64,000 nt of DNA from an uncultured bacterium (GTDB lineage Bacteria > Chlamydiota > Chlamydiia > Chlamydiales > SLFE01): positions 14,015 to 78,014 of the forward strand of contig CAZPBC010000003.1 of the NCBI GenBank assembly GCA_964584775.1, given 5' to 3'. Below are positions 2,739-38,106 of this stretch, piece after piece. The stretch's first letter is position 1, and each line of letters opens with the position of its first letter. The translations under genes and the position numbers were made by a program. The notes beneath the pieces were generated by a model. That model was not told the DNA's origin and made no database searches. It was given only the letters and a program-made list of their open reading frames with translations.

Positions 2739-4187
2739 ATGGCCTATCCATTGAATCAGAAGCTGAACCAGAAAGGCGTTCAGAACCAGAAGCAGCAGCA
2801 GCTCATCATGCTTTTGCCAGAGATGCAGCGTGCGATGGATCTGCTGCAGGCGCCTGTCATGGAGCTGGGTGAGCAGATCGAACTGGAGCTCGAGCAAAAC
2901 CCTGTTTTGGAGTACTTCGAAGAGGTCGCCGGGGAGATGGGAGTCAAGAAAGATGAGGGAGTCAAAGAGCTAGATCTTTCCGATCAGGATTATTCTGTCT
3001 TGAAAGATTTGGATGAGTCTTTTGAAGATTTCTTTAGCCAAGATCAAATCACTGAAAAAATCACGGAAGAAGACAAAAAGAAACGCTCTTTCAAAGAATC
3101 TTTGATCGTAGAGGAACGGACGCTCTACCAACATCTGATGGAGCAGGCGCAGGAAACCTTCGAGACAGAAAAAGAGAGACGAGTTGCGAGCCATCTAATA
3201 GGCAGCTTGGACTTGAGTGGGTTTTTCAAAGGAGATTTCAAAGAGGCGGCACTCCTGACAGATTCGACCCCTGATTTTGTTGAAAGAGTTTTAAAAGAAG
3301 TTCAAAAATTTGATCCTCCAGGAATTGCCGCAAGATCGCTCCAAGAGTCCCTGCTCACTCAACTGCGTTACCAGGATAAAGAAAACACCATCGGATACCG
3401 ACTGATTCGCGATTACTTTGACGACTTTATCCACCACCGCCTTCCCCTGATCCAAAAAAAATCGAGGCTTTCTCACAAACAGATCCAAAAAGCGATCGAT
3501 CAGGATATCACTCATCTGGATCTACATCCAGGAACCCTCTTCAATACAGAAGATGTAGGGCCTATGGTTCCTGATGCGAGCTTACTTGAAGAGGATGGGG
3601 TTTTAACCGTCACGATCAACGACGATTCCGTTCCTCCTTTACGGTTTAACCGCACTTACTTACAGCTTCTCCGTCAAGAGAGCTCGAGTGAGGAGACAAA
3701 GGAGTACATCACAAAGAAGTTGAACTCAGCCAAGCTGTTGATCAAAAACATCGAGCAGCGCCATCAGACGCTGACTCGTATCTTAGAAGCGATTGCAAAA
3801 CATCAGCGTGCGTTCCTTGTCCGTCCTGAAGGGCAACTGAAGCCCATGACCATGACGGCATTAGCTGAAGAGCTCGGTCTTCATGAGTCAACGGTCGCCC
3901 GTGCAGTGAGTCGTAAAGTGGTCCACACGCCTCGTGGACTTCTCATGCTTCGCAGCTTCTTCACCACAGCCCTTACCACCCAAGATGGGGGAGAAGTTTC
4001 GAACGCGACGATTAAGGAAGAGATCCTCAAGATCATTGACAAAGAGGATAAGAAAAAACCCTTCAGTGATGTTCAGCTTGCTGAAATCCTCAAAAAAGAG
4101 GGGTATATTGTTGCACGTCGTACCGTTGCGAAGTACCGAGCCCTCCTTTCCATCGGATCTTCCACCCAACGACGAAAGTACAGTTAA
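2739..4187 (+). CDS. rpoN: RNA polymerase sigma-54 factor
   Basis: Gln/Leu-rich region I (QKQQQLIMLLPEMQRAMDLLQ), core-binding region, HTH, and RpoN box ARAVSRKVVHTPRGLLMLRSFF. Confidence 0.95.
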   Translation: MAYPLNQKLNQKGVQNQKQQQLIMLLPEMQRAMDLLQAPVMELGEQIELELEQNPVLEYFEEVAGEMGVKKDEGVKELDLSDQDYSVLKDLDESFEDFFSQDQITEKITEEDKKKRSFKESLIVEERTLYQHLMEQAQETFETEKERRVASHLIGSLDLSGFFKGDFKEAALLTDSTPDFVERVLKEVQKFDPPGIAARSLQESLLTQLRYQDKENTIGYRLIRDYFDDFIHHRLPLIQKKSRLSHKQIQKAIDQDITHLDLHPGTLFNTEDVGPMVPDASLLEEDGVLTVTINDDSVPPLRFNRTYLQLLRQESSSEETKEYITKKLNSAKLLIKNIEQRHQTLTRILEAIAKHQRAFLVRPEGQLKPMTMTALAEELGLHESTVARAVSRKVVHTPRGLLMLRSFFTTALTTQDGGEVSNATIKEEILKIIDKEDKKKPFSDVQLAEILKKEGYIVARRTVAKYRALLSIGSSTQRRKYS

Positions 4188-4712: not shown

Positions 4713-5603
4713 CTAGCTCTGTCTAATGTAAGCGTAGAGCTGTCTCCAACGGGGGGATGTCTCTTTTTGTTTTTCTGCGAAGTGTAGGATGTCTTCTGGT
4801 GTTTGCTTGGAGAGATGGATGATCTCGTTGTCGGTAAGTCGGAAGAGGATCGCCTGAGCTATTTGGGAGTTAAAGAGCTGGGTGAGTTTTTCTTTGAGAG
4901 AGTGGAAGAGGCGCCGTTTATTGTAGAGGCGGAAGAGAGCGTAGGTGAGGAGGAGGGCGGGAAAGATTTTTAGCCATTGGAAGGACTGGAAGATTTCCAG
5001 CTGTCCTGAGGCGAGGAGAGCGAAGTCAATGAAGAAGAGAGTGAGCAAAAGGAGGACAAACAGCACTGCTTCGATCCGTTTTTGGATCAGGGGTCCGAGC
5101 CATCGTTGCCAAGAGCGTCCTTGACACTGATAAGCGATGATTTCCTCGAAGAGGGGTTCGTTAAAGGTCATCCGGCAGGTATGGGCGAGCTCATGGGCGA
5201 TCAACTCTTCGCGTTTGTAGAGTCCGAGGAGGCTTTTTTTCTTTCGAAATTCTTTGCGTAGCTGAAGGAGGGAGGCCCATGGAGTTGTCTCCTCTTTTTG
5301 AAAGATCCACGCGCATCCACCGTGCCAGGGGAGGAGCTTGTAGTTGCTGAAGAAGAGGGGGACCCAGTCAGGTTTGACGTCGAAGAGCGGTTCTGTGAGA
5401 GAGAAGGACTCTTCTAAGAAGGCTTCTTGATCCTCTTCTTCAGAGCGTAGGGGGGCGAGTTCGTTGCCGAACTCGTCAAAGAGGTGGTTTTTTAGGTTTT
5501 TGCAATAGTCGACACGCTTTAGAAAGCTCTCTTCGTCCTCATCAGGACCTGCGATAAAACCCTCTTTACTCAGTTGGATCAGCTGTGTGTCGTCGAGCGT
5601 CAT
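4713..5603 (-). CDS. Membrane protein with an HExxH metallopeptidase-like motif
   Basis: IAHELAHTC (HExxH) sits in the soluble N-terminal half. Two hydrophobic helices lie in the C-terminal half (AVLFVLLLLTLFFIDFALLA and IFPALLLTYALFRLY). The start overlaps the upstream gene by 38 nt. Confidence 0.55.
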   Translation of the reverse strand: MTLDDTQLIQLSKEGFIAGPDEDEESFLKRVDYCKNLKNHLFDEFGNELAPLRSEEEDQEAFLEESFSLTEPLFDVKPDWVPLFFSNYKLLPWHGGCAWIFQKEETTPWASLLQLRKEFRKKKSLLGLYKREELIAHELAHTCRMTFNEPLFEEIIAYQCQGRSWQRWLGPLIQKRIEAVLFVLLLLTLFFIDFALLASGQLEIFQSFQWLKIFPALLLTYALFRLYNKRRLFHSLKEKLTQLFNSQIAQAILFRLTDNEIIHLSKQTPEDILHFAEKQKETSPRWRQLYAYIRQS

Positions 5604-6387
5604 ACTTGAGAATCATCTGGTCGGGACGGAGTCGTTCTTTCATCGTCCTGAGCCCTTTCAGTCCTAAGTCCTGTTCAATATTGAAGTAAGTAAACTCCCT
5701 TCCTGCATTTTTTGCAAAGGAGTGGTACATCATTGGTGTCATCCCATGAAAATCATGATTCGATTTTTCGACGTGCCCGACGAGGGTGGTGGGGTTCAGC
5801 TTCTCTCCAATTAACATCGCAGCGATCTGATTCTCGACGCGGAGGAGTCCTCCGATGAGGGGGAGGCGTGTGTAGTGTTCAAGTAAAAGGAAGAGAGCCT
5901 CTTTCTCTTCAGGAGTGCGGATGACGAGGGTGTCGATCCAGTCGCGGATTTCTGGGATTTCTTTTTCAGTGATCTCGAAGTAAGCGGGTTGGTAGCGCTG
6001 CTCGCAGCTGCGGATCTGTTGCCTGAGGCGGTGGAAGGGATGCCCATCCAGCTCGACCAACTCTTCCATTTTCAGTAGGTAGTCTGCTTGGTCGCGGTTG
6101 AGCTGAGACTCCCACTTTTGGAGGTCAGCGGAAGCGAGTAGAATCCGTTCTTGTGTCTTGGAGGGGTGAGGAAAACGTTTCTCAGGACCGATCGGTTCAC
6201 CAAAGGGGATCCACTCGTCTTCCTCTTTTTTATAGAAGAAAAGGGTGTCGCGCGCGATCTGAAAGTAGATCTTGCGGCTCTTTGACCAGATGAAAAGGTT
6301 GGTGAAGGTCATCTCTGAGAGCTGAGGAGGGTGTGCTTCAAAGAAGGGCTTCAGTTCCTCTTGGTGTTTAAATGAGAGGGGCGTCAT
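5566..6387 (-). CDS. DUF2156 / LPG_synthase_C-like protein (free-standing homolog of the MprF aminoacyl-phosphatidylglycerol synthase catalytic domain)
   Basis: The N-terminal LSEMTFTNLFIWSKSRKIYF matches the characteristic s.ytF.NlfiW motif of DUF2156 proteins. Its ~270 aa size fits a double GNAT-like fold. The start overlaps the stop of the upstream gene by 4 nt (ATGA). Confidence 0.55.
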   Translation of the reverse strand: MTPLSFKHQEELKPFFEAHPPQLSEMTFTNLFIWSKSRKIYFQIARDTLFFYKKEEDEWIPFGEPIGPEKRFPHPSKTQERILLASADLQKWESQLNRDQADYLLKMEELVELDGHPFHRLRQQIRSCEQRYQPAYFEITEKEIPEIRDWIDTLVIRTPEEKEALFLLLEHYTRLPLIGGLLRVENQIAAMLIGEKLNPTTLVGHVEKSNHDFHGMTPMMYHSFAKNAGREFTYFNIEQDLGLKGLRTMKERLRPDQMILKYDARRHTADPTE

Positions 6388-8924
6388 GAGAGCAGGCGGG
6401 CGATGCTCTGAGCCAGAAAGGTGAGCGAGGAGGACTCAAAGAGTTTTTCATGTCTTGTGGGGAGCAGCTTGATCGAGAGGCGAGGAACAAAGGCCTTCCA
6501 TCCTTCTGCAATCTCTTTTCGTTCGTTCTCGAGCTCTTCCGCTTCAAAGAGGACCACGTCGATATCGAGGGGAGAGGGGTGGTAGCTCTTTTTGGGAGTT
6601 TTCATTTCGCGGGAAAAGCGTTGAGTGACCTTCTCTTGGAGCTTTTCATCAGCAGAGGAGAGGCCGATGGTGCGTAGGAGGCGCTCCTCAAAGCGCTGGT
6701 AGCGCATGAGGAAGGGTTCATCGCTTCTTTTGTAGATCTTTTTGAAGAAGGTTTTCAAACTATAGAAGGGACGGAGAAGGAGGAATGTCTTTTTCGGTGA
6801 TGGAGCGTCGACGAGGGCTAAAGTGCGGATGTGGATGCCCCGTTTTTTGAGGAGGCGCGCCACTTCAAAGGCGAGGATTCCCCCAAAGCCATAGCCGAGG
6901 AGGGCGACCTCTTCAGTGCGGAGGGTTCTTGAAAGTTCTTTGTCGACCTCTTCAGCACGTTTTATCACGTCAGGATGGCGCTCGATCGTTTCCATTTTCA
7001 CACCGTATAGAGCGTGCTTATCACTAAAGTGTTTGCCGAGCTCAAAGAAGGGGTAGAGCTCGCCGTCGATCCCGCCGAAGCAGATGAGCGGCATGCCGTC
7101 GCCGCCTTCACGGATGTCTGCAAGAAGGCTTTCATCTTGCGGCTCTTTGAGGTATTCAGCGAGTTCAGCGACGGTGGGGTGTTCATAAAGGGTGGTGATG
7201 TTGATCTTCCGGTGGAGTCTTTTATCGATGCCACTGACAATCTTAGCGAGGCTGACAACACTGTAGGGGAACTCAAAGAGGTTCTTCTTTGTGCTGATGG
7301 GGTAGATGCCGAGATGTTCTTGGCAGATGAGGGTGAGCTCTCTTTCGGTCGCGTTTTTAGGAGGGAAGTAGATCTCCTCTTCACACTCTTCCTTAGGTGG
7401 GTTCGGAAGCTGGTCGTAGAGGACCTTCATGTGGTGGTTGAGGGGGAGCTGTGAAAGTTCAATCAGGAAAGAGGGAACGGCGTGTTTGGGTAGATTTGAT
7501 TTGAGGAGTTTGACAAGTGCTTGCTTCGTGACGAGGAGGTCTTTTTTCACGACGTAGTAGGCAGCGAGCATTCCAGGGGAGACTTCCTTCACTGCAGCTT
7601 GCAGGACGCTTGGGTGGTTCACGAGAAGGGTTTCGATCTGATCGAGCTGGAGGCACTCGTCACCGATCGTGACTTGCTTATCTTTACGGCCGATGAATTG
7701 GTATTCACCGTTCTCCAGTTTTTTGACCGTGTCGTCGGTGAGGAAGTAACGCTCGGGGCGCTTCCCGAGCTTCGAGTAGATGATGAAGTTCTTCTTCTTC
7801 TCTTCGTCGGCTCCGAGGTAGCCTTCTGCTAGGGCTGGACTCGAGAGGGCGAGCATCCCCTCTTCTCCCTCTTCCACCTCTTGGAGAGATTCGCTAAGAA
7901 GGAGGACTTTGACAAAAGGAAGAGGTTGTCCGATCGGAGGAGGCACCGAAGAACTCTCTGACACGCGGTGATAGAGCGAGAGGACGCCGTTCTCGGCAGG
8001 GCCGTAGCAGTTCACCACCTCAAAAGGAAGGTCGGCGCGGACCCGTTTTTTGAGCGTTTCTCCTCCGGTGAAGAGGGTGCGTAGCTGACAGGTGCCGAGG
8101 GAGGGATCTTCCCAGTTCTCATCGATCATGAGCTCACAGCTGGAGGTCGGAAGGTGGATCAAGGTGATCTTTTCACTGATGATCCATTTCTTGAGCTCTT
8201 CAGGATTTTGGAGCACTTGACGGGTGGGAATTTTGATCTGCACGCCACTTAAAAGGTAAACAAGGATCTCAGCGATCGACATATCTTGGCTCGGCTTCGA
8301 AGTGATCGCGGCGATATCTTCGCTAGAAAGGTCAAACGTCTCTTTATACCAAGGGATGAGAGCTGAGATCGACTGGTGGGTGAGCTCGACGGCTAACTTT
8401 CCAGAGGAGGTGAAGGTGCAGTAGAGAGGGGTTTTTGGTGAAGGAGGTGTGTGTGTCATCTCTTCAGGGGCGGAGCTGCTGGCAATGATATCGCGGATGG
8501 AGAAGCTCTTCATCTCTTCGTTGAGGATGGAGGGGGCGACACTAGAACTCGTGAGGAGGATTTCTGGAGTCGTGAGCTCCACCATCTCCATCAATTTTGC
8601 CTTGGGTAGAAGCGGGTCAAGGGGGACATAGGTGGCGGAGATCTTAGAGAGAGCAAGGAGGGCGACGACTTGCTCGTACGAACGGTCAGCGAAGAGGGCG
8701 ACACGCGACCCAGCAGCGGCACCTTCTTTGGTTAAAAAGTGGGCGAGGCGGAGTACGTCGGCATGGAGATTCGCAAGGGTGATCGGACCAAGGGGGGTAT
8801 GGATAGCGGGGGCATCTGGATGGACCGCGACGAGCGCTTCGAAGAGCTCATCGATAGTTTGCGGTTTAGTGGAGGGCTTATTAGCCCCTGAGCCGGTCTT
8901 TGTTTCAACGAGGGTTGTCATCAC
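6384..8924 (-). CDS. NRPS-like tridomain protein: AMP-dependent adenylation domain, carrier (T/PCP)-like region, and thioesterase/alpha-beta-hydrolase-like domain
   Basis: A-domain cores: ATYVPLDP (A2), NCYGPAENG (A5), GRKDKQVTIGDECLQLDQIE (A8). Carrier-like segment LFEFPYSVVSLAKIV. TE-like segment PLICFGG...LLGYGFGGILAFEVARLL...LVDAPSP...RHEKLF. Confidence 0.75.
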   Translation of the reverse strand: MMTTLVETKTGSGANKPSTKPQTIDELFEALVAVHPDAPAIHTPLGPITLANLHADVLRLAHFLTKEGAAAGSRVALFADRSYEQVVALLALSKISATYVPLDPLLPKAKLMEMVELTTPEILLTSSSVAPSILNEEMKSFSIRDIIASSSAPEEMTHTPPSPKTPLYCTFTSSGKLAVELTHQSISALIPWYKETFDLSSEDIAAITSKPSQDMSIAEILVYLLSGVQIKIPTRQVLQNPEELKKWIISEKITLIHLPTSSCELMIDENWEDPSLGTCQLRTLFTGGETLKKRVRADLPFEVVNCYGPAENGVLSLYHRVSESSSVPPPIGQPLPFVKVLLLSESLQEVEEGEEGMLALSSPALAEGYLGADEEKKKNFIIYSKLGKRPERYFLTDDTVKKLENGEYQFIGRKDKQVTIGDECLQLDQIETLLVNHPSVLQAAVKEVSPGMLAAYYVVKKDLLVTKQALVKLLKSNLPKHAVPSFLIELSQLPLNHHMKVLYDQLPNPPKEECEEEIYFPPKNATERELTLICQEHLGIYPISTKKNLFEFPYSVVSLAKIVSGIDKRLHRKINITTLYEHPTVAELAEYLKEPQDESLLADIREGGDGMPLICFGGIDGELYPFFELGKHFSDKHALYGVKMETIERHPDVIKRAEEVDKELSRTLRTEEVALLGYGFGGILAFEVARLLKKRGIHIRTLALVDAPSPKKTFLLLRPFYSLKTFFKKIYKRSDEPFLMRYQRFEERLLRTIGLSSADEKLQEKVTQRFSREMKTPKKSYHPSPLDIDVVLFEAEELENERKEIAEGWKAFVPRLSIKLLPTRHEKLFESSSLTFLAQSIARLLS

Positions 8925-8940
8925 AAGCCTCTTTCTTTGT

Positions 8941-9103
8941 CTGGATATTTCATGAATAGTCGCAAAACTGTCACAAAATCCTTTGCGCCACCTTCGACAA
9001 ATTTCCCTTTTGGAAAGGGTGTTAGACCCTTCCCTTCAAGGGTGATTCGTCGAATTTGTCGATCATTTTGTTTCATTTTCACAACTCTTCATGAAACATC
9101 CAG
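8941..9103. repeat. Copy A of a ~165-bp palindromic intergenic repeat (MITE-like)
   Basis: Termini CTGGATATTTCATGAA ... TTCATGAAACATCCAG are inverted repeats (15/16). The arms are imperfectly complementary around a central CCCTTTTGGAAAGGG hairpin. A homologous copy lies at 20957-21120. Confidence 0.75.
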
Positions 9104-9183
9104 GACAGCTATAAAAATTCCAGGAACGTTATTATGTATTAAGCTATAGTCTGATCCATATCATCTCTAGAGTAATATATACA

Positions 9184-10731
9184 ATGAATAGAAACGAAAC
9201 CCTCTTCCGCACCCTCCTAGCTCTCCTCATCCTCAAGTTTCTGATCGTTCTTTTCTTTTTGATTACCAGTGGGATAGGCCTTTCTCCCGACGAAGCACAG
9301 TACTGGGCTTGGAGTCAGGATCTCAGCTTCGGCTACTACAGCAAACCTCCTGGCATCGCCTGGGTGATTGCCTTTTTCACCGCGCTTTTTGGAAACCAGA
9401 TGGTGGCTGTCCGTCTCGGCGCGAGTTTGATTTCCGCACTCCTTGCCTTAGTCACCTACTTTTACAGTAGAAAGCTCTCTCTCTCAGAGGCTTCTGCTTT
9501 TTTTGCAGCGGCCCTGGTTGCCTTTTCTCCTCTCGGTTGGTTGGCTTCAGTCTATATGACCACCGACGGTCCGATGACGCTCTTTTGGAGTGCGGCGACT
9601 TTTTCGCTGCTGGTCTCTCTCCATCGAGAGGAGGAGATCCGCCCCCTTCAGCTCGGGCTCTTTGTGGGGCTCGGTGCTCTATTCAAATGGACCTGCTTCC
9701 TCTTCTGGCCGGTGGCGGGGATTTACCTGCTCCTCCGGCGCAAACTTTCTTGGCTGCCTTTTCTTAAAGCGGGGGGGATCTCTCTCTTCGCTCTCCTTTT
9801 TCCATTGATATGGAATGTAGAGAACGACTTTGTGACATTCCGCCATGTGTTAGGACAGGTTCTCGGCAGCCCGGGTGCGATCCAAGGGGCTCCACGTGCT
9901 CCAGCCAACCCCCTTGACTTTTTTGCTGCGCAGATGGCTCTTGCTTCTCCTTTGATCTTTGTCTTTTTTCTTGCGGGGGTCTGTTGGGGTGCGGTCCGCT
10001 GGCCTAAGCTAGCAGAACGAGAAAAGGGTCTCCTCTTTTTTTCTGGGGGGGTGCTTCTCTTTTACCAAATCTTCAGCTGTTTTCAAAAGATCCAAGGAAA
10101 CTGGGCCGTCTTTGTTTTCCCGACTCTCTTTGTTTTTGTCGCACTCTTCACCTTTGATCTTTTCCACCGCCTCCGTAAGTGGGCGGTCTTTGGACTCTGT
10201 TTAGGTTTGGTAGAAGTCTTTCTGCTCTTTTCGATTCCCTACATCCAATCCAGCGGATGGAAAGAGATCCGCATTCCTTTCCGTTGGAACCGATTCCGCG
10301 AAACGATGGGAGTGGCAGAGCTCGGACCGCTTCTTGAAAAGGCAGGCTTTGATCCAGAAAAACAGTTCCTTCTTTCCGACACCTATCAGATGAGTTCGCT
10401 TCTCAGTTTTTATAATCCCTCTCAAGTGCGCGCCCTATTTATCAACTTGTATGGCCGCCGTCAAAACCAATTCGATTTTTGGCCCGGTCTGAAAGAGGAG
10501 CCAAAAAAAGAGGGACTCTTCCTGACCCTCGAAGAACTCCCTAAAACAGGGAGTCAAATGAAAGCCCTACAAGCAGACCTGACACTCAAACTCTCCCTCT
10601 ATTTCGACGAGGTAGAGTGGGTGGAGCTCGTTCCCTTATACGAAAGTCAAGGGGAGCCTGCCCGCGCCGCCACGCTCTTCAAGGTGAGCGGCTTTAAAGG
10701 AAAACTTCCTGCAACCACGCATCAATACTAA
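9184..10731 (+). CDS. ArnT/PMT-type (GT39/GT83-like) polytopic glycosyltransferase
   Basis: N-terminal motif GLSPDEAQYWAWSQDLSFGYYSKPPGIAW is typical of the dolichyl/undecaprenyl-phosphate-sugar dependent transferase family. There are more than 10 hydrophobic helices and a soluble C-terminal domain. Confidence 0.8.
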   Translation: MNRNETLFRTLLALLILKFLIVLFFLITSGIGLSPDEAQYWAWSQDLSFGYYSKPPGIAWVIAFFTALFGNQMVAVRLGASLISALLALVTYFYSRKLSLSEASAFFAAALVAFSPLGWLASVYMTTDGPMTLFWSAATFSLLVSLHREEEIRPLQLGLFVGLGALFKWTCFLFWPVAGIYLLLRRKLSWLPFLKAGGISLFALLFPLIWNVENDFVTFRHVLGQVLGSPGAIQGAPRAPANPLDFFAAQMALASPLIFVFFLAGVCWGAVRWPKLAEREKGLLFFSGGVLLFYQIFSCFQKIQGNWAVFVFPTLFVFVALFTFDLFHRLRKWAVFGLCLGLVEVFLLFSIPYIQSSGWKEIRIPFRWNRFRETMGVAELGPLLEKAGFDPEKQFLLSDTYQMSSLLSFYNPSQVRALFINLYGRRQNQFDFWPGLKEEPKKEGLFLTLEELPKTGSQMKALQADLTLKLSLYFDEVEWVELVPLYESQGEPARAATLFKVSGFKGKLPATTHQY

Positions 10732-10791
10732 ACATTTTATTCGCACTTTCGATAAGATCAAATCTTTGATACGTAAGAGGAGATCGAAGTT

Positions 10792-13700
10792 ATGGAAAGG
10801 CTATTAGGAGCTTTTGGTTATGCACCTGTTGACCACACTCCACAACCAAAACAGGTCTGGAAGAAAAAACTGGAAGAGATGCTTGGTTCAGAAGTTGCTG
10901 AGAGGTGTGATGAGGCTCTACCTGAACTGAAACACTATTTCACTGATGAGAATTGGCTGGAGTTTCTTCAAGAGCTTGGAATCTATGTGGGTAATGCAAG
11001 GCTGAGGAGAGAAGAGAATTACCAGTTGCTCCAGACAGGGGGTGAGTCGCAGATGGACCGCACGGTCAGGCAAACCTGTGAAACACTGAGAACTGACTTT
11101 CAGATCAAAGTGAGTCAGCTTGCAATCAACGGAGTGTGGCCCGATGAAGCGAGAAGGCTACTTGGAACCATCCTCTGGACGGTAGAGTTTTTAACCAATC
11201 CCTTTGCTCCATCACAGCTTCTATCCGATCTTGTATTCAACATTCTTCCTATTGAGGGGCGAGTCAGTCATTTAGCCGAACGAACAGGTGAGTACCTTGA
11301 GAGTCATGATGTCGAGCAAAACGTTATCTTTGGTTCTGCTCGTTTTCAAAGGTATGGCGAAGTGTACGTTTCTACAGAGTGGGTAAAAATGGGACTTGAT
11401 GAATTGAAAAACCCACAGCCTTTGAATTCGGCCTTGAGGATGACCTTTTACGTTCCTGGTCTTGACTGTCTCACCTTTACCCTTCCCTTTTCCATTCCCG
11501 AGTTGAATGTGCACTGGACGTTCTCTGCTGAGGAGTTTCTTCAGCTGTTTCACTGGTACTTACGTTCTACAGAGGAAGAGCAAGAAAAGTATTTAGAGGA
11601 TCATCGAGGAGAGCTTCGAAAGGTGGTCACAGGACACGCCGATCTCTTAGCGTCGCTCACCAAATTCTACCATGCGTTTGACCAAGTCGTAGGAGAGGAT
11701 TTTCATCGTCAATTGAGAGAGTGTGGGGCTCAGTGGGACCCTGACGGTTGCCAAGAGCTTTCCAGGCAACTGTCAGAGTTTGCGGGAGAGTGGGGTGAAA
11801 AAAGGTTTAACCCAGGACTCGGGATGGGTCTAGCCGTCTACTCAAGTCTTATTCAAGAAGTGGGTGTCGACTCGGACCTAAAGTATGGCGCTGAATCGTG
11901 CCAGGTGAACTTGCGTCAACTTCAGGGTGTTGTTGATCTCTCTTCTGTAAGGGGAAGGGTCGGCTCCTCTGTTGAGCAGGAGGTGAATGATGGTCTCCGC
12001 GCGATGGAAGAGTACGCCAGGAAGGACCTTGCAACGTTGGAGGAATTTGAGGAGCTTCGATTGAAGTTGAAGGGGGTCGAAGCGTTAAAAGGTGAACTGG
12101 AGATCTTGGAAAAGTCGCATGAGTTGAGAAAGGCTCTTTGGGTGCACTATCAAAAGCTCTCACCTGAAGTGAAAGCAGCGCGTGCGGCACTGGAGGCTTT
12201 TTCTCGGAAAGAGCGTGTCGATCGAAGTGATGTACAGGCTTTACGCAAAGCTCTAGAACCGGTGAAAGAGATGGCGGGCTTCCAGGACGTCTACGCTACA
12301 CTGGCTAACTTTGAAGAGGGCTTTGATCGCGAGAAAGAGGCGGTGGCAGAGGGTTTTGGCAAATTCTTGAACCACACGGTTTCGATCTTTGAAGAGGGCA
12401 CGGAGCAGCTCGCAAAACCGAAAGTCGCTGCATTTTTACAGAAAGACAACGTGAATCAAGCCGATGTGCAAGGGGTTTTGGTTTCTCTTGAGCCCTATAA
12501 AGCGCAACCGGGTTTCCAAGAGGTATACGAAGCCCTTGAGGCATTTAAAGCAGCGCGCTTCAAAAGCGGTGTTGATCAAGTAATAAATGATTTTAAAGTC
12601 TTTTTTGAGGGAAGGTTCAATGCTTTGAAAAAAATAGGAGAAGTCGAATTTGAAAACTTCCTTCAAGAATTTTGCGTGGTTCCCTACCGGTATGTTGCAC
12701 CGATGCGTGCTCTCTTGGAACCTCTAGCCGGTTCAGCAGAAGCGGTCGCTGCTTTAGATGCTTACACGGGCAGGTTGAAGCAGAGTGAAGCGCTTGTTAA
12801 GCAAGTGGAAAAAGCGATGGCGGAATTTAAGGAGGAGGTCAAGGTCCGATTCCGCCGTTTTTCTCCTCTTCTCGGTCGGATAGGAGCGACAGAGCGCGAT
12901 ACAATGTTGACGAATTTGGAGCCCTACTTGCCTCTGATCCGACGGATCGGTGCGCTCGGTGAACTTTCTCATCAACTTACCCATGAGGAGTACCACAATT
13001 TGATGGTGGCTCTCGAGAACCCCGACAACGAAAAGTATATAGAGTGGGTTGTGAAAGGGTGTGAAGAGGTGCAAGCGCAACGAGTCGGTGGTGAGACGGC
13101 TTCTTCTGAAGTGTGGCTTCAGCCGCTGCGTACCCTCTTCAGCGCTGCAACGCTGCCTCCTCTAGATATTGTGAAGCATTTTATGGGGATTGCAGATCTC
13201 GATGATTACAACTACGCCATGTTGACCTACCTCTTGCCTCTTCTCTATAAATTAGAGACTTTTGGACTGACAGACCACGATTTTACCCAAAGTGATCCTC
13301 TCTATCGGGGACTGACTGTGGACAGCGATGGGTTCACCGTTCAGTTTAAAAGAGCTCTTGAATGGATCGTGAAAGCGTGCCAGGCCTTGAACACACGCTT
13401 TGATGGAGCGTTCAAGCGAGACTTCGACGAAGTGGTTCGGTTACTCAAACCCGTCGAAACGACAGATGCTGTGTATAAAACGCAAGTATCGAGGAAGGCC
13501 AGAGAGGTCCTTGTTCTTGTTGCGAAGATTGCCGACTTAGGGATGTATGGAACAGAGGATCATGCGAAAATCTTCAGTGGAGTGGTGAGGGATCAAATCC
13601 GCCCAGAGCTTGAAAAAGCGGTGAGAATTTGTGAGTGCTTAAGAGAGCTCCATTTGGATCAAGAAGGACAACCTCATTATCTTCTTAAACCCGATAGAGA

Positions 13701-13944
13701 GGTCTATGAGCCCTGGCAAAAGCCTTTGGTTGACTTGATCCGTCGCGTCAAAGAGCTTGAACACGGTGAACCTTTAGGGAATGTCGTAGAGGCTCCTCCT
13801 GGCGCGTCTGTCCATCTAGAAGATGGCAGGCCGGCGATTCAGATGGGGGATGCCCCTTCCGAAATGGGCAGTGTGGCGGATCCCGATGTGTATGATAATT
13901 CTAACCCTTTTGTGTCTGATCCTGCCGATGACCCAGCTCGGTAA
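10792..13944 (+). CDS. Large orphan protein, paralog 1 of a tandem pair (candidate secreted effector)
   Basis: 1050-aa uninterrupted ORF with GAGGAG about 8 nt upstream of the ATG. It is collinear with the ORF at 14141-17353. Acidic, proline-containing C-terminal tail. No domain recognised. Confidence 0.8.
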   Translation: MERLLGAFGYAPVDHTPQPKQVWKKKLEEMLGSEVAERCDEALPELKHYFTDENWLEFLQELGIYVGNARLRREENYQLLQTGGESQMDRTVRQTCETLRTDFQIKVSQLAINGVWPDEARRLLGTILWTVEFLTNPFAPSQLLSDLVFNILPIEGRVSHLAERTGEYLESHDVEQNVIFGSARFQRYGEVYVSTEWVKMGLDELKNPQPLNSALRMTFYVPGLDCLTFTLPFSIPELNVHWTFSAEEFLQLFHWYLRSTEEEQEKYLEDHRGELRKVVTGHADLLASLTKFYHAFDQVVGEDFHRQLRECGAQWDPDGCQELSRQLSEFAGEWGEKRFNPGLGMGLAVYSSLIQEVGVDSDLKYGAESCQVNLRQLQGVVDLSSVRGRVGSSVEQEVNDGLRAMEEYARKDLATLEEFEELRLKLKGVEALKGELEILEKSHELRKALWVHYQKLSPEVKAARAALEAFSRKERVDRSDVQALRKALEPVKEMAGFQDVYATLANFEEGFDREKEAVAEGFGKFLNHTVSIFEEGTEQLAKPKVAAFLQKDNVNQADVQGVLVSLEPYKAQPGFQEVYEALEAFKAARFKSGVDQVINDFKVFFEGRFNALKKIGEVEFENFLQEFCVVPYRYVAPMRALLEPLAGSAEAVAALDAYTGRLKQSEALVKQVEKAMAEFKEEVKVRFRRFSPLLGRIGATERDTMLTNLEPYLPLIRRIGALGELSHQLTHEEYHNLMVALENPDNEKYIEWVVKGCEEVQAQRVGGETASSEVWLQPLRTLFSAATLPPLDIVKHFMGIADLDDYNYAMLTYLLPLLYKLETFGLTDHDFTQSDPLYRGLTVDSDGFTVQFKRALEWIVKACQALNTRFDGAFKRDFDEVVRLLKPVETTDAVYKTQVSRKAREVLVLVAKIADLGMYGTEDHAKIFSGVVRDQIRPELEKAVRICECLRELHLDQEGQPHYLLKPDREVYEPWQKPLVDLIRRVKELEHGEPLGNVVEAPPGASVHLEDGRPAIQMGDAPSEMGSVADPDVYDNSNPFVSDPADDPAR

Positions 13945-14046
13945 ACGGCGCTTTCATATTCGCGTATTTACCGTACACGAAATCGCAGAGGTTGTGGGAA
14001 AAGTCCTACAATCTCTGGGTTTTTTTCTCGATCGGGTAGTCTGGTG
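13919..14046 (-). pseudogene. Relic of the 3' end of the 2-hydroxyacid-dehydrogenase-like gene, carried along by the tandem duplication
   Basis: The reverse complement reads DYPIEKKTQRL*DFSHNLCDFVYGKYANMKAPFTEL. The intact gene at 17328-17460 reads GYPIEKNHQSFQDFLYNLRQFLHGNYADMKSLFTQL. In-frame TAG at 14006-14008 (minus strand). No upstream remainder of the gene is present. Confidence 0.7.
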
Positions 14047-14080
14047 AAGGAAAACTGCTTGCGACCAGCCATCACTACTA
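14047..14080 (+). pseudogene. Relic of the last ~30 nt plus stop of the glycosyltransferase gene, marking the start of duplication unit 2
   Basis: AAGGAAAACTGCTTGCGACCAGCCATCACTACTAA aligns with AAGGAAAACTTCCTGCAACCACGCATCAATACTAA at 10697-10731. Both are followed by the same ACATTTTATTC...TAAGAT upstream region. Confidence 0.65.
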
Positions 14081-14140
14081 AACATTTTATTCCCACATTC
14101 GCTAAGATGCAACCTTTCAGTTAAAGAGGAGGGTGAAGTT

Positions 14141-17100
14141 ATGTTAAGTGGGGTATTTGGATATCTAGGGTACGAACGTGTTGACAGCACTTTAAAACCA
14201 AAACAAGTTTGGCAACAAACACTGGAAGAGCATCTAGCCGACGAGGTTGCTACCAGGCTTGGTGGTGCTTTACCTGGGCTTAAAGAATATTTTACTGATG
14301 CGAATTGGCCGGAGTTTATTCAGTCTCTTGGAATCTATGTGTCTAATGCAATGATGAGGAGAGAAGAGAACTACCTGCTGCTCCAGACTGGCGGTGAGTC
14401 GCAGATGGGTCGCACGGTTAGGCAGATCTGTGAAAGAGTGAGGTCTGAGTTTCAGTTGAAAGTAAGTCAACTTGCAAAGGATGGAGTGTGGCCCGATGAG
14501 GCGAGCAAGCTACTTGGAACCATCCTGTCGACGGTCGAGTTTTTAACCAATCCCTTTGCTCCAACACAGCTTCTATCCGATCTTGTATTCAACATTCTTC
14601 CGACTAAGGGGCGAGTCAGTCATTTAGCGAAACGAACAGGATCATACTTTCATCCTGAGGATGAAGAGCAACAAGTCATTTTTGGTTCTGCACATTTTCA
14701 ACAGTATGGAGAGGTGTATGTTTCTACTGAGTGGGTAGAAATGGAGATTCTAAAAACGGTTGATCCGCAGCCTTTAGAATCCGCTTTGAGGATGACTTTT
14801 TACCTTCCTGGTGTGGATTGCCTGACTTTTACGCTTTCTTTTTCCCTTCCTGATTTGGATGTACGGAGGGAGGCCTCTTCCAGCAAGTTTCTTAAGCTGT
14901 TTCACTCTTACTTATCTGCTTCGGAAGAGGAGGAAGAAACGTATTTAAAGAAGCACCGTGGAGAGCTTCGAAAGGTAGTCAGAGGACACGCTGATCTGAT
15001 AGAGGCGTTGACCAAATTTTACCATCCGCTTGAAATTATGATAGGGGGAGATTTTCGCCGTCAGATGGCGAAATGCGATGCTCAGTGGGATCCTTACGAC
15101 TGGAAAGAATTAAAGGATCTGCTGTTATTGTTTGGCAGGGAGTGGGGCCAAAAAAGGTTTAATATGGAATTGGGACTGAGTCTAGAAGTCTACTCAGAAT
15201 TTTTTCGACTAGAAGCTCTCCACCCTGAAGAAGCAGTAGGCGCTGAACCGGAAGTGAAGTATGATCCTAAAGCGTGCCTGCTGTTCTTGCATCGTCTTCA
15301 GAATGTTGTGGATCTCTCTTCTGTAAGGAAAAGAGAAGAGGAGAGGGTTGTCGACTCCTCTATTTCAGAGGAGGTGACTCAAGGTCTCCTTGCGATTGAA
15401 GAGTATGCAGGAAAGGAGCTCGCGACCTTGGAGGAATTTGAGGAGCTTCGATCTCAATTGGCGGAGGTCGAAGAGTTACAAGATGAACTGGAGATCTTGG
15501 ATAAGTCGCATGAGTTGAGAAAGGCACTGTGGAAACACTATCAAAAACTCTCAAATGAAGTGAAGGTTGCAAGTGCGGCGTTGCAGGCCTTTTCTCGGAA
15601 AGAGACGATCTACCGATTGGATATCAAATCCTTTCGAGAGGCTCTAGAGCCGGTGAAACAAATGGTGGGCTTCGATGAAGTCTACGCAACACTTGCCACC
15701 CTTGAAGAAGGCTTTGCCGAAGAAGAGGCCGTAGAAGAGGGCTGTGCCGACGAAGAGGCGGTGGCAAAGGCTTTAAGCAAATTCTTGAGCCACCCCTTTG
15801 AAGAGGGCTCGGAGCAGCTTGCAAAGCCGCAAGTTGACGAATTTTTAAAGAAGGAAAATGTGAATCAAGCGGATGTGCAATGCGTTTTGGACGCTCTTGA
15901 GCCCTATAAAGAGAAAGCGGAATTTAAAGAGGTGCACAGAGCCCTCAAGGCTTTTCATGCAGAGCGTTTCACGGAAGGAGTAGAATTCGTAGAAAATGAC
16001 TTTAAGGCATTTTTTAAGGAACAATATGGTGATGTGGAAAAAATAGGAGGGGTAGCAGTTGAGAACTTCCTTGAAGAGTTTTGCATCGACTCATACCAGT
16101 ATCTTGCATCGATGCGTGCTCTCTTGGAACCTCTAACTGGCTCCGAAGAGGCAGTGGCTGCTTTAGACGCTTTCTCGGAGCGGTTGAGGCAAGGGGAAGC
16201 CCCTGTTGAGCGTGTCGAGGCAGCGATGGTCGCTTTTAAGAAAGAAGCGGTGGTCCGTTATTGCCGTTTTTCTCCTCTTCTCGGTCGGATAGGAGCTACG
16301 GAGCGCGATACGATGTTGACGAATTTGCATCCCTATCTACCTCTGATCCGACGTATTGGTGCGCTCGGTCAGCTTTCTCATGAGGAGTACCACAATTTGA
16401 TGGTCGCTCTGGAGAACCCCGACAACGGAAAGTATATCGAGTGGCTTGTGAAAGGGTGTGAAGAGGTGCAAGCGCAAAGAGTGGGTGGTGAAATGGCTTC
16501 CCCTGAAGTGTGGCTTCAGCCACTGCGTACGTTCTTCAGCTCTGCAACGCTGCCTGCACTTGATATTGTGAAGCGTTTTATGGAGATTAAAGATCTCGAT
16601 GAACACAACTACGCCATGTTGACCTACCTCTTGCCTCTTTTTTATAAACTAGAGACTTTTGGACTGACAGACTACACCCTTACTGACGAGGATCCTCTCT
16701 ATCGGGGACTGACTGGGGCCTTCACCGTTCAGTTTAAAAAAGCACTTGAATGGATCGTGAAAGCGTGTCAGGCCTTGAACAGGCGCGTTGCTGGAGGATT
16801 CAAGCGAGACTTTGACGAGGTGGTCAGGTTACTCACACCCATTCGAGAGACAGATGCTGTGCATGAAACGCAGGTATCGTTCAAAGCCACAAACGTCTTT
16901 ACTCTTGTCGCGAGGATAGCCGACTTAGGGAAGTGTAAAGCAGAGGATCACGCGAAACTCTTCAGCGCAGTTGTCAGGGATAAAATCCGCCCTGAGCTTG
17001 AAAATTTGGTGGACATTTGTGAGGGCTTAAGAAGATTCCATTTCGATCAAAAGGGAAAGCCTGACTATCTCCCTAAACCTGATGGAGAGGAGTATGAACC

Positions 17101-17353
17101 CTGGCAAAAACCTCTAGTGGATTTCATCCGCCGCACCAGAGAGCTTGAAAAAGATGCACCTTTGGACAATGAACCTCCCCCAGGTACGGCTGTAGTAATA
17201 GAGGGAGAAGAGGTGGCTTATCTTGTAGATGAACTACCTGCAGGTATGATGGGGCTACATCGAGGTTTGGATCAGGGACCTTCAGAAGGGGAGAGTTTTA
17301 CAGATTCTGAGTACCGTGATGGGGACTCTACTGGGGAGGATTCAGCTGAGTAA
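14141..17353 (+). CDS. Large orphan protein, paralog 2 of the tandem pair
   Basis: 1070-aa ORF collinear with 10792-13944. GAGGAGGG lies upstream of the ATG. The 3' end overlaps the convergent dehydrogenase-like gene by 26 nt. Confidence 0.8.
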   Translation: MLSGVFGYLGYERVDSTLKPKQVWQQTLEEHLADEVATRLGGALPGLKEYFTDANWPEFIQSLGIYVSNAMMRREENYLLLQTGGESQMGRTVRQICERVRSEFQLKVSQLAKDGVWPDEASKLLGTILSTVEFLTNPFAPTQLLSDLVFNILPTKGRVSHLAKRTGSYFHPEDEEQQVIFGSAHFQQYGEVYVSTEWVEMEILKTVDPQPLESALRMTFYLPGVDCLTFTLSFSLPDLDVRREASSSKFLKLFHSYLSASEEEEETYLKKHRGELRKVVRGHADLIEALTKFYHPLEIMIGGDFRRQMAKCDAQWDPYDWKELKDLLLLFGREWGQKRFNMELGLSLEVYSEFFRLEALHPEEAVGAEPEVKYDPKACLLFLHRLQNVVDLSSVRKREEERVVDSSISEEVTQGLLAIEEYAGKELATLEEFEELRSQLAEVEELQDELEILDKSHELRKALWKHYQKLSNEVKVASAALQAFSRKETIYRLDIKSFREALEPVKQMVGFDEVYATLATLEEGFAEEEAVEEGCADEEAVAKALSKFLSHPFEEGSEQLAKPQVDEFLKKENVNQADVQCVLDALEPYKEKAEFKEVHRALKAFHAERFTEGVEFVENDFKAFFKEQYGDVEKIGGVAVENFLEEFCIDSYQYLASMRALLEPLTGSEEAVAALDAFSERLRQGEAPVERVEAAMVAFKKEAVVRYCRFSPLLGRIGATERDTMLTNLHPYLPLIRRIGALGQLSHEEYHNLMVALENPDNGKYIEWLVKGCEEVQAQRVGGEMASPEVWLQPLRTFFSSATLPALDIVKRFMEIKDLDEHNYAMLTYLLPLFYKLETFGLTDYTLTDEDPLYRGLTGAFTVQFKKALEWIVKACQALNRRVAGGFKRDFDEVVRLLTPIRETDAVHETQVSFKATNVFTLVARIADLGKCKAEDHAKLFSAVVRDKIRPELENLVDICEGLRRFHFDQKGKPDYLPKPDGEEYEPWQKPLVDFIRRTRELEKDAPLDNEPPPGTAVVIEGEEVAYLVDELPAGMMGLHRGLDQGPSEGESFTDSEYRDGDSTGEDSAE

Positions 17354-18305
17354 ACAGCGACTTCATATCGGCGTAGTTACCGTGGAGGAACTGACGGAGG
17401 TTGTAGAGGAAGTCTTGGAAGCTCTGGTGGTTTTTCTCGATCGGGTAGCCTGCCGACTCAAAGGTGACGAGGGCGTTGGGCAGACCGCGTAGCTCTTCGA
17501 GGTGTTTAGGGTTGGAGAAGTGGGCGTCGATCACGGCGCCGCGGAGCCGACCACTCAGAAGGAGTTCTTTGAGGTCAGTGAGCTTGACGACCGAACCGGA
17601 TCCAAAAAGCAGGAGAAGGGCGTCCTCTTTTAAAAGGGAGAGGAGCTCTGAGGAGAACCAGGGCTCGTAGCTGTGGTCTCGTGGCATGGTGAGAGAGACG
17701 ATATCAAACTGGGGAAGCAGCTCTTTGAGAGCACTCGTCGGGTGGGTGACTTCGCAGCAGGGGTGGAATGAGGCTGGGTCTGAGACACCTGTCACTTTAA
17801 ATCCAGCTTCGCTCACCTTTTTCGCAATTTCCGAGCCGAGCACACCGAGTCCCACTTGTAAAAAAGATTTTTCTTTGGCTGCCCACATCCGGGCGCGGAG
17901 GTTGTCGACGTCGTAGGGGCTCTGAAGCCAAGAAAAGAGATTTTTTGAAAAAGAGAGGAGGGAAGCGAGGGCAAATTCGGCAGTGTGGTCGATGTTGGCC
18001 TCTTTAGTCGTACTAATGAGGAGGCTTTCGCTGCTAGCGCTTGCCTCGAAGGCGATCTGGTCGAGGTAGGGTTTGGGGCAGTGGATCCAATGGAGGTGGG
18101 GGAGTAAAGGAAATTCTTGAGCACTTAAAGTCGATCCGTAGAAGATTTCTACTTGCGCAAGTCTCTCAATACCAAGGCTTGCGAGGTTTTCTCCTGCGGG
18201 CAGGCGGATGAGCTCCAGCTGGGGAAACTCCGTCATCAGCAGCCCGAGCTCTTCATGGCCGATCTCTTCACGAATAAGGATAGTGCTCATCATAACAGTT
18301 GTCAT
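17328..18305 (-). CDS. D-isomer-specific 2-hydroxyacid dehydrogenase family protein (NAD-binding fold; catalytic residues look substituted)
   Basis: Rossmann motif VGLGVLGSEIAKKVSEAGFKVTGV. The overall layout fits the family, but the usual N..RG, D.f..EP and PH motifs read FGSGS, DAHFSNP and FES. Confidence 0.65.
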   Translation of the reverse strand: MTTVMMSTILIREEIGHEELGLLMTEFPQLELIRLPAGENLASLGIERLAQVEIFYGSTLSAQEFPLLPHLHWIHCPKPYLDQIAFEASASSESLLISTTKEANIDHTAEFALASLLSFSKNLFSWLQSPYDVDNLRARMWAAKEKSFLQVGLGVLGSEIAKKVSEAGFKVTGVSDPASFHPCCEVTHPTSALKELLPQFDIVSLTMPRDHSYEPWFSSELLSLLKEDALLLLFGSGSVVKLTDLKELLLSGRLRGAVIDAHFSNPKHLEELRGLPNALVTFESAGYPIEKNHQSFQDFLYNLRQFLHGNYADMKSLFTQLNPPQ

Positions 18306-19020: not shown

Positions 19021-19061
19021 TCCCAGCAGAGTCTTTTTAAGATTTTGCTGGGATTTTTTTT
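19021..19061 (+). terminator. Candidate intrinsic terminator or attenuator between rpmA and obg
   Basis: TCCCAGCA (19021-19028) pairs with TGCTGGGA (19046-19053) and is followed by T8. The loop is large (17 nt), so the structure is weak. Confidence 0.4.
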
Positions 19062-36284: not shown

Positions 36285-38045
36285 ATGGAAGCTCCAACAC
36301 CAACACCTGCATCTGGTTCAGTCACGCCAGTTTCAAAAATTCCTATGACGTCATCAGGACTAACAACACCATATGGCTCTCGACCAGGAAGTCCAGTTCG
36401 CGCAGAAACATTTAACATGCGAGAAATTGCAAAGAAATATGCATCTCCTAAATCGGCCGGAGTTTATGGTTTTCGTGAAGGAGGAGCAATCCTCGAAAAA
36501 ACAAGAACGGCGGCTCAAGAAGTGTTTTTGAAGGTCGGTATTCAATGGGAGATTCCTTTTGAGCTGACGGTTCCTGGTTTTTCTACTTTTGAACAGTATT
36601 ATCTTGCTCAAGCAGCGATTTCAGACCGTGCTGCTACACGCATCCTTAGTTCAGGGCAAGGGCATTTTAAAAAATGGGAGGGTCTTACACCAGAAACCTT
36701 GAGAGAACTACCTTCTTTGTACAAACTCTACAAGCTTATCTTAGATAGTAGAGCAAGGGGCACCTCCCGAGTGAGTACCCAAGAGCTTTGTCAAATCGGC
36801 CTTCCTAATACAGCATTTCTTCTTACACGCGTCAAGCATGGTGATGATTTTCCAAATGAAAAAGCTGCTTTGGTAGGGGCCTTTACCCCTAAAAACGAAG
36901 AAGACTTTAAAACTGAAGGAGATCTTGATATAGCTCGTGCTTTAGCTTGTCCAAGGATAAGCGGAGAAAGAGGACAAGTGGATCAAGTGGCTCATTTAGC
37001 AAAAGCGTACTTTGAAAAGGGCCTAGTCATCAAGGCAAGAGATTGCATTCTTAGTCAGCCAGAAGATGAGCGTTCAATCACGATTCAAAGAGTGCTTGAA
37101 ATAATGCCGGATAAAGGAATTCCTTATGTGTTCTTTGCCATGCATTTACCCCTTCAAGATCGGGGGCCTCATTTAAAACTGTGTGCTGAAGAAGCGGCTA
37201 CGGAAGCTGCTAGGAATACGTATAGACTTAAAGACTGTCTTACTCTACTTGGGCATATAGATGATAGAGTGCTGAGGGAGCAAGCTGAGTTAGAGTGCGT
37301 TAACACCTTTAAAACCTCATTAACTAATGTACTCGTTATTGTCGACACATTAAGGAATTTTGAAACGTTTGAAGCTTCTAAGAAACTTGTCGAACACCTC
37401 GTTACTCTGATGTCTGGTACGGGTCATTCAGCTGCTTTTGATTTATTTGATGAAATACGCGAGAAAGATGGACGTAAAGGAAACGAAGAAGCGAGGCTCT
37501 ATGCCTATCAGCACTGGTTCACGGAGAGACATATCTCTACTACTGAAGCCAAAGGTATGATCAGAGAGAGTTCAGACTCAACTCGTAAGAAGGGGCTGCT
37601 TATCGGCTACGCGCATAGTTCTGTAATTAAAGATACAAATAGCGATATCGTCACTAAAGCAGCAGGATTAAGAGAGCCAGACGAGATCCGTGTCTTGCAG
37701 GAGGTGGTTGAAATCCTCTGTAATAAAGAGCATGACTGGAGTGCAGCCACATTACTTGTCCAATCTAAGCCACATATGTCTCTTTATAGGACTCTTGCAG
37801 AGCTCTTAATTGGCAATAGTGATCAAAAGGCTACTGTTGCTCTGATGAGATATGCTGTTAAAAATGTTACAAGAGGTGACCGGTTAGTTCAACAGATGGC
37901 TGAGCATGCGAAACATTTGAATAAGCGCGAAATTTCTGATGCGATTAGGAAAGTCATCGGACTTCCAAGTCTCTACAAAGATCAAGTAGCTCGAGGTTGG
38001 TGGTTCGGAAGAATCTTCCATCCTTTGTGGGGTTCGAGCGGCTAA
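36285..38045 (+). CDS. Orphan protein with a Ser/Thr/Pro-rich N-terminus (candidate secreted effector)
   Basis: 586-aa ORF with GAGG before the ATG and an AT-rich upstream region. GC is visibly lower (~43-47 percent in sampled lines) than neighbouring housekeeping genes. No recognised domain. Confidence 0.7.
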   Translation: MEAPTPTPASGSVTPVSKIPMTSSGLTTPYGSRPGSPVRAETFNMREIAKKYASPKSAGVYGFREGGAILEKTRTAAQEVFLKVGIQWEIPFELTVPGFSTFEQYYLAQAAISDRAATRILSSGQGHFKKWEGLTPETLRELPSLYKLYKLILDSRARGTSRVSTQELCQIGLPNTAFLLTRVKHGDDFPNEKAALVGAFTPKNEEDFKTEGDLDIARALACPRISGERGQVDQVAHLAKAYFEKGLVIKARDCILSQPEDERSITIQRVLEIMPDKGIPYVFFAMHLPLQDRGPHLKLCAEEAATEAARNTYRLKDCLTLLGHIDDRVLREQAELECVNTFKTSLTNVLVIVDTLRNFETFEASKKLVEHLVTLMSGTGHSAAFDLFDEIREKDGRKGNEEARLYAYQHWFTERHISTTEAKGMIRESSDSTRKKGLLIGYAHSSVIKDTNSDIVTKAAGLREPDEIRVLQEVVEILCNKEHDWSAATLLVQSKPHMSLYRTLAELLIGNSDQKATVALMRYAVKNVTRGDRLVQQMAEHAKHLNKREISDAIRKVIGLPSLYKDQVARGWWFGRIFHPLWGSSG

Positions 38046-38072
38046 AAAGACCTTTCCTTTTCAGGCTTGAAA

Positions 38073-38106
38073 CTCCAGTGAGCATCGGCTCACTGGAGTT
38101 TTTTTT
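38073..38106 (+). terminator. Rho-independent terminator between the convergent orphan gene and argS
   Basis: Perfect 11-bp stem CTCCAGTGAGC / GCTCACTGGAG with loop ATCG, followed by T8. Confidence 0.8.

Follow-up and report, generated by a model that had tools for sequence, protein, structure and literature searches.

Tandem duplication is a textbook source of new bacterial paralogs, and the exact segment that was copied can rarely be read once the copies have diverged by about 25%. Gene-fragment relics at the seams of segmental duplications are a well-known scar of bacterial genomes. Environmental Chlamydiae often carry tandem duplicates; in Protochlamydia amoebophila, Domman et al. (2014) counted 47 tandem duplication events, with tandem arrays as the hallmark of duplication (PMC4209131). 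Here, we analyzed a 64,000-nucleotide (nt) stretch of DNA from an uncultured bacterium (contig CAZPBC010000003.1 of assembly GCA_964584775.1, positions 14,015 to 78,014, forward strand; hereafter, the window), in which two adjacent copies of one segment, each carrying a long orphan open reading frame (ORF), lie between a glycosyltransferase gene and a convergent dehydrogenase-like gene. The locus is an old head-to-tail duplication of one roughly 3.35-kb segment, ordinary as an event and very cleanly preserved. We consider it very probable that the whole explanation developed below holds, in which the duplication would have been followed by the retention of both paralogs and of their upstream blocks and by the rise of a terminator from one of the gene relics at the seam.

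Like the expansions in environmental Chlamydiae (PMC4209131), the locus comprises head-to-tail paralogs that encode a lineage-specific protein and are under purifying selection. Unlike those families, it has two copies and no large array, and its protein has neither a recognizable domain nor a homologue elsewhere. The exact limits of the segment and the relics of both flanks are legible here, a situation that PMC4209131 does not describe for any of its cases. As at duplication seams generally, truncated and decaying ends of neighboring genes mark the boundary; unlike the usual seam relics, both are present, they are fused together, and one of them displays directional substitutions toward a hairpin followed by a U-tract.

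The extent of the duplication was traced in several ways. A repeat scan (10697-14043 against 14047-17452) revealed nine collinear families of direct repeats with offsets of 3350-3418 nt, including 10697-10767 against 14047-14117 (83%) and 13922-14043 against 17331-17452 (74%). In a blastn comparison, one high-scoring segment pair linked 10697-13783 to 14047-17171 (76.1% over 3167 nt; E = 0) and a second linked 13934-14043 to 17343-17452 (75.5% over 110 nt; E = 1e-16), with no blastn similarity beyond the limits of these two, and a global alignment gave 77% identity between the units over ungapped columns. The left limit is sharp, since AAGGAAAAC is found in both copies from 10697/14047 and the alignment collapses upstream, where no similarity was observed. 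On the right, clear homology ends at 14043/17452 (…CGATCGGGTAG[T/C]CTG), and an ungapped extension adds two further matches, reaching 14047/17456. A first-pass annotation, made by a model from the sequence alone, had already proposed a tandem duplication of about 3.35 kb with four parts per unit, and the repeat scan, blastn, and boundary alignments bore this out; its start (10697) and junction (14046/14047) stood, whereas its end of unit 2 (17464) had to be moved to 17452-17456. The similarity outside the ORFs is significant and ends near the breakpoints proposed there.

The four parts of each unit are the last 35 nt of the glycosyltransferase gene (10697-10731 in unit 1), a conserved upstream block, an ORF of 1050 or 1070 amino acids (aa), and the 3′ end of the dehydrogenase-like gene (17328 to about 17456 in unit 2). 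The dehydrogenase piece is present in both units, as the annotation had stated, and measures about 110-125 nt instead of about 130. At the junction, the minus-strand dehydrogenase relic abuts the glycosyltransferase relic directly, an arrangement that had also been anticipated and that both the boundary alignments and blastn supported, and the two outer genes are full length with Pfam matches. The copies are adjacent, collinear, and on the same strand, the distal end of one is joined to the proximal start of the other, and the arrangement is present in the DNA of the organism.

Paralog 2 shares its last 26 nt (17328-17353), tail to tail, with the intact dehydrogenase-like gene. This overlap of the orphan ORF with the dehydrogenase gene is older than the duplication because the homologous TAA stop of paralog 1 (13942-13944) sits within the relic. 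The ancestral order was the glycosyltransferase gene, the orphan gene, and the convergent dehydrogenase-like gene, with the orphan stop already inside the dehydrogenase 3′ end. One head-to-tail event copied a segment that begins 35 nt ahead of the glycosyltransferase stop and ends approximately 125 nt within the dehydrogenase gene. Each flanking gene is kept whole by the outer copy of its end, and the inner copies, fused at 14043-14047, have lost their coding capacity.

Because the source is a metagenome-assembled genome (MAG), the repeat might be suspected to have arisen in assembly, either as a plain artefact or by the fusion of sequences from two strains that each contributed one allele of a single gene. 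However, copies that are only 77% identical are far too different to be strain alleles, and separate relics flank each of them. The junction was spanned with zero differences by a 1382-nt unitig (13213-14594) in each of four metagenome runs from four studies, the support coming from short-read unitigs, not long reads. Neither alternative joints nor differences were observed in seven runs, three of which were compared down to 80% likeness. The read depth was even over both units, and the order glycosyltransferase, ORF1, ORF2, dehydrogenase recurred unchanged in 11 contigs, up to 620 kb long, that had been assembled independently. Unitigs break at words of more than 31 nt common to both paralogs, as expected of a diverged repeat. 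We attach practically no weight to an artefactual origin.

The first-pass annotation had read the event as consistent with microhomology-mediated illegitimate recombination at the tetranucleotide AAGG, in which copies at 10697 and 17461 would have recombined and one copy would have been retained at 14047. The word is indeed present at all three places, and AAAGG is common to 10696 and 17460. At the right breakpoint, however, the copies are shifted by 5 nt: AAGG comes 3 nt (GTG) after the last aligned base at the junction, compared with 8 nt (CCGACTCA) in the parental gene, so that the model can hold only with a 5-nt deletion and additional substitutions. The ungapped alignment is simpler, with homology running to 14047/17456 without AAGG, a break at 14043-14047, and an overlap of at most 1-2 nt, leaving the word unused. 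AAGG occurs once per 175 nt in the window, and its chance of lying no more than 8-12 nt from any chosen point is 4.5-6.7%; seven different 5-mers are common to the two 50-nt flanks, and even a shared 7-mer, AAGGTGA (10681/17461), has P = 0.13 among random window pairs. The coincidence at AAGG is no better than chance, and recombination at this word appears improbable to us. At about 25% divergence a 4-nt signal is unrecoverable, and the mechanism of the duplication is no longer readable from the sequence.

The inner dehydrogenase fragment has clearly lost its coding function. Its minus-strand translation reads YPIEKKTQRL*DFSHNLCDFVYGKYANMKAPFTEL, compared with YPIEKNHQSFQDFLYNLRQFLHGNYADMKSLFTQL at the C-terminus of the live gene. 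A motif, SFxxFxYNLRQ..HGN..M, is invariant in six orthologues and kept in the live copy, and it is broken in the relic (Y->H, R->C, Q->D, N->K). Since the motif is invariant in the orthologues and intact in the live copy only, the direction of change is fixed as from live to relic. The annotation had called this fragment a dead relic and noted its in-frame TAG at 14006-14008; the loss of coding and the TAG were confirmed, whereas the word "dead" fails, as the relic now contains the best terminator-like hairpin in the window, with the TAG forming part of its 3′ arm.

A consensus scan called a terminator at 13986-14017, followed by GGTTTTTTTC and located 42 nt past the stop of paralog 1 (13944). 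The perfect 14-bp RNA hairpin with its U7 has a predicted folding free energy (dG) of -24.1 kcal/mol (z -6.6), compared with -12.8 (z -0.6) and U5 for the homologous stretch of the live gene. With the T7 beginning 2 nt after the stem, the element has the sequence form of a Rho-independent terminator; when both strands were considered, it was the strongest hairpin-plus-T-run in the window. The next strongest sites were found at approximately 19021-19061 (+), after the L27 gene just before obg, and at approximately 38065-38106 (+), after a 586-aa gene ending at 38045. Both have perfect stems of 11-15 bp and T8, the same build as the relic element, and as two textbook terminators at gene ends they indicate that the organism uses classical Rho-independent terminators. 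The relic element resembles such terminators in its perfect 14-bp stem, its 4-nt loop, its U7, and its position downstream of a stop on the same strand. Unlike the usual ones, it demonstrably stems from the opposite-strand coding sequence of another gene, a near-ancestral version of which still stands 3.4 kb away. A search of Rfam returned nothing relevant.

Eight differences separate the stems of the live and relic sequences, seven of which improve pairing (three mismatch repairs and four changes from G.U to Watson-Crick); the eighth turns an A-T pair into G.U. When 15 random substitutions were placed on the live sequence, a stability of -24.1 or better was reached in 1 of 4000 trials under a uniform model and in 4 of 4000 under a transition-biased model (about 0.03-0.1%). 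The minus-strand fold of the relic element reaches only -12.8, and the T-run lies on the plus strand only. The structure is specific to the sense RNA of paralog 1, given that two G.U pairs turn into C.A on the minus strand. Freed from coding constraint, the inner fragment would have passed from a weak quasi-palindrome with T5 to a perfect 14-bp hairpin with U7, and this hairpin probably acts as a Rho-independent terminator of paralog 1, for which the relic would have been recruited. We lean, with some reserve, toward a scenario in which selection would have fixed about eight stem substitutions (seven of them improving pairing) together with the change from U5 to U7, such that a terminator born from protein-coding sequence would split the paralogs into independent units. 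A terminator placed just after the stop of paralog 1 would indeed make the two paralogs separate transcription units.

The same duplication could have left a hairpin without function, shaped by neutral decay or by one or two template-switch corrections, with the paralogs and the glycosyltransferase gene being co-transcribed. An imperfect inverted repeat with T5 was already present in the parental sequence, the genes lie on the same strand with short gaps (60 nt between the glycosyltransferase gene and paralog 1; 196 nt between the paralogs), and the promoter-like hexamers described below are weak, all of which would fit such a view. Neutral simulation, in contrast, attains the observed stability in only the 0.03-0.1% given above, and a DNA-templated correction should yield Watson-Crick pairs, whereas two of the pairs are G.T, one of them made from A-T, and the fold is strong only as plus-strand RNA. 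The T-run grew concurrently from 5 to 7, and both the form and the position of the element are like those of the two clear gene-end terminators in the window. A functionless hairpin is a possibility that we take seriously and nevertheless find rather unlikely.

The block upstream of each paralog has also been retained. Over the 71 ungapped nt from the left boundary, the copies differ at 12 positions (17%), six of which fall within the 35 nt of the glycosyltransferase portion (14047-14081 against 10697-10731). The TAAACA-N18-TAAGAT stretch differs at only 3 of 30 positions (10729-10758 against 14079-14108), and the spacing from the ribosome-binding site (RBS) to the ATG is kept. Measured against the difference at synonymous sites (pS 0.386) as a neutral yardstick for two freely evolving copies, the conservation of the 71 nt is significant (P = 6e-5). 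A sigma-54 promoter in the conserved block was rejected by eye, as no GG-N10-GC pattern was observed. It is plausible from these alignments that a promoter or leader was retained in both copies, each of which would have kept a weak sigma-70/66-like -35/-10 pair plus an RBS. The first-pass annotation had considered it probable that each paralog keeps its own promoter; the TAAGAT hexamer and the close conservation of the stretch in both copies agree with this, and the match of the element to the consensus is weak, as set out next.

Several points weigh against the explanation favored here, that is, a duplication with retained upstream blocks and a relic-derived terminator. The TAAACA-N18-TAAGAT element has 8 of 12 matches to the sigma-70 consensus, below the threshold of 9/12 of our scan, which left it uncalled, and when the relic's own 25% divergence is taken as the yardstick, the conservation of the upstream block is marginal (P = 0.07). 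The terminator was noticed after the fact, and the live sequence used for comparison is a proxy for the ancestor only. Half of the stem differences fall on third codon positions in the live gene, which may be the copy that changed there. Mutation is also known to proceed by template-switch "correction" of quasi-palindromes, which could form a hairpin without selection. None of the RNA runs searched for this stretch contains it, and no single-copy relative was found in the collections searched.

The last point concerns the polarity of the event, which the first-pass annotation had proposed to settle by comparison with related genomes that carry a single copy; none turned up. The best Chlamydiae orthologues of the glycosyltransferase (33-39% identity) have neither the ORF nor the dehydrogenase gene adjoining, and orthologues of the dehydrogenase (42-46% identity) keep the rho-obg-L27-L21 side without the glycosyltransferase gene and the ORF on the other. 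As far as the sequence can be read, nothing but its own relics polarizes the event. In L081, the closest relative found (Rho 79%, dehydrogenase 46%), the dehydrogenase gene is directly followed by a DUF2156/LPG_synthase_C gene, the 296-aa neighbor, and rpoN (10001-14501 of that contig). The corresponding genes lie at 5566-6387 (DUF2156), 4713-5603 (296 aa), and 2739-4187 (rpoN) in the window. The block 6384-17327 of the window, with a gene resembling those of nonribosomal peptide synthetases (NRPS-like), the glycosyltransferase gene, ORF1, and ORF2, is absent from L081, since the dehydrogenase gene there directly adjoins the DUF2156 gene; the block is either a lineage-specific insertion or was lost in L081.

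Both paralogs have been kept as proteins and have diverged to 64% aa identity. Over 1033 aligned codons (Nei-Gojobori), the synonymous divergence (dS) was 0.54 and the nonsynonymous divergence (dN) 0.22, giving a dN/dS of about 0.4; these values indicate that both genes are under purifying selection and that the event is old. The dS is uneven along the gene, at about 0.2 in 11062-11330 and 13063-13330 and 1.0-1.4 in 11602-11870 and 12511-12690. Recent gene conversion was rejected despite this range (0.2-1.4), as the longest exact match between the paralogs, 37 nt, is about what chance allows (median 26 and 95% limit 36 under a uniform model). Old gene-conversion tracts or local constraint are possible sources of the unevenness.

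The encoded protein stands alone in the databases. No Pfam or NCBIfam family was found in the paralogs, and in Pfam there was no F-box, BTB, or LRR domain; a profile search of the PDB returned no relative, its only match being an SMC coiled coil at E 0.18. AlphaFold2, run on a two-sequence alignment, reached a predicted local distance difference test (pLDDT) score of 34, too low for a usable model; by its secondary structure, the protein would be mostly helical, with a single small sheet at residues 184-235 and an acidic, disordered tail. Homologues of the ORF family were found neither in a word-index search of 5.8 billion proteins nor in scans of GTDB genomes and JGI metagenomes. Apart from a 170-aa piece of the very same protein, an exhaustive phmmer search of 1.84 billion representative proteins retrieved only two ebh-like giants of amphioxus (Branchiostoma). 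These were rejected as relatives, since the phmmer score sums 16-28 near-identical repeats; each repeat has 21-22% identity at E of about 0.005, and there is no shared Pfam domain. The only hint of a secreted effector was a non-significant match to XopAD (E 0.077), and a role in host interaction, as a lineage-specific and possibly secreted protein, is no more than a guess.

The coordinates of the features are collected in Table 1.

Table 1. Features of the duplicated locus and its flanks, in coordinates of the window
Feature	Position	Strand	Remarks	Evidence
Glycosyltransferase gene (PMT_2 type), intact	9184..10731	+	515 aa	Pfam PF13231 at 1.4e-21; ORF list
Duplication unit 1	10697..14046	+	3350 nt	Repeat scan, boundary alignments, blastn, global alignment
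Upstream block, paralog 1	10729..10791	+	-35-like TAAACA 10729-10734, 18-nt spacer, -10-like TAAGAT 10753-10758, RBS AAGAGGAG	
Paralog 1, orphan ORF	10792..13944	+	1050 aa; mostly alpha-helical, acidic disordered tail (predicted)	
Relic of dehydrogenase-like gene	13934..14046	-	Last ~40 codons; in-frame TAG 14006-14008	Translation; tblastn E = 1.4e-7
Intrinsic-terminator-like element in relic	13986..14026	+	14-bp stem 13986-13999/14004-14017, 4-nt loop, T7 14020-14026	
Duplication unit 2	14047..17456	+	End uncertain, 17452 to 17456	Repeat scan, boundary alignments, blastn
Glycosyltransferase 3′-end relic	14047..14081	+	Last 11 codons + stop	29/35 identical to 10697-10731
Upstream block, paralog 2	14079..14140	+	TAAACA 14079-14084, TAAGAT 14103-14108, RBS AAGAGGAG	
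Paralog 2, orphan ORF	14141..17353	+	1070 aa; last 26 nt overlap the convergent dehydrogenase-like gene	
2-Hydroxyacid-dehydrogenase-like gene (2-Hacid_dh_C), intact	17328..18305	-	325 aa	Pfam PF02826 at 7e-19

Genes identified in the window, a segment of a bacterial chromosome, include rpoN, obg, rho, coaE, polA, and sppA, and polA-coaE-rho-sppA is also the gene order of Chlamydia genomes. The best matches of the glycosyltransferase (33-39% identity) are from Parachlamydiaceae, Waddliaceae, and Chlamydiae MAGs, and the dehydrogenase orthologues (42-46%) conserve synteny toward the ribosomal and rho-obg side. Several lines of sequence evidence point to an uncultured source organism within the Chlamydiota that is only distantly related to all species sequenced so far. 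Throughout 10400-17800, zero differences were observed in every contig from seven sediment or seawater metagenome runs belonging to at least five studies, which suggests a clonal and widely sampled population or related sample sets. Two further observations were made in the relatives. Downstream of the dehydrogenase gene in another relative (L083, 12262-15234; L084, 5588-8614), there are two adjacent DUF1254/DUF1214 genes (482 aa; 504 or 522 aa), which look like another tandem duplication at the equivalent locus. In L081 (an ENA contig), obg, DUF2156, and rpoN (8283-9258, 10923-11744, and 13049-14501) are each called in two or three pieces, which look like long-read indel errors rather than real pseudogenes.

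The case changes no general principle, and it shows that a duplication cutting into two neighboring genes can leave both intact. The position of each breakpoint is constrained to about 5 nt, the relics of both flanks survive, and both copies are clearly maintained. The locus also draws attention to a 1050-aa protein family from a poorly known chlamydia-like lineage; no relatives of this family were found among 1.84 billion representative proteins. Above all, it offers a candidate regulatory element, predicted to terminate transcription, that would have evolved from a coding relic and that comes with a built-in ancestral comparator; because a near-ancestral sequence is still found 3.4 kb away, every mutational step could be rebuilt and assayed.

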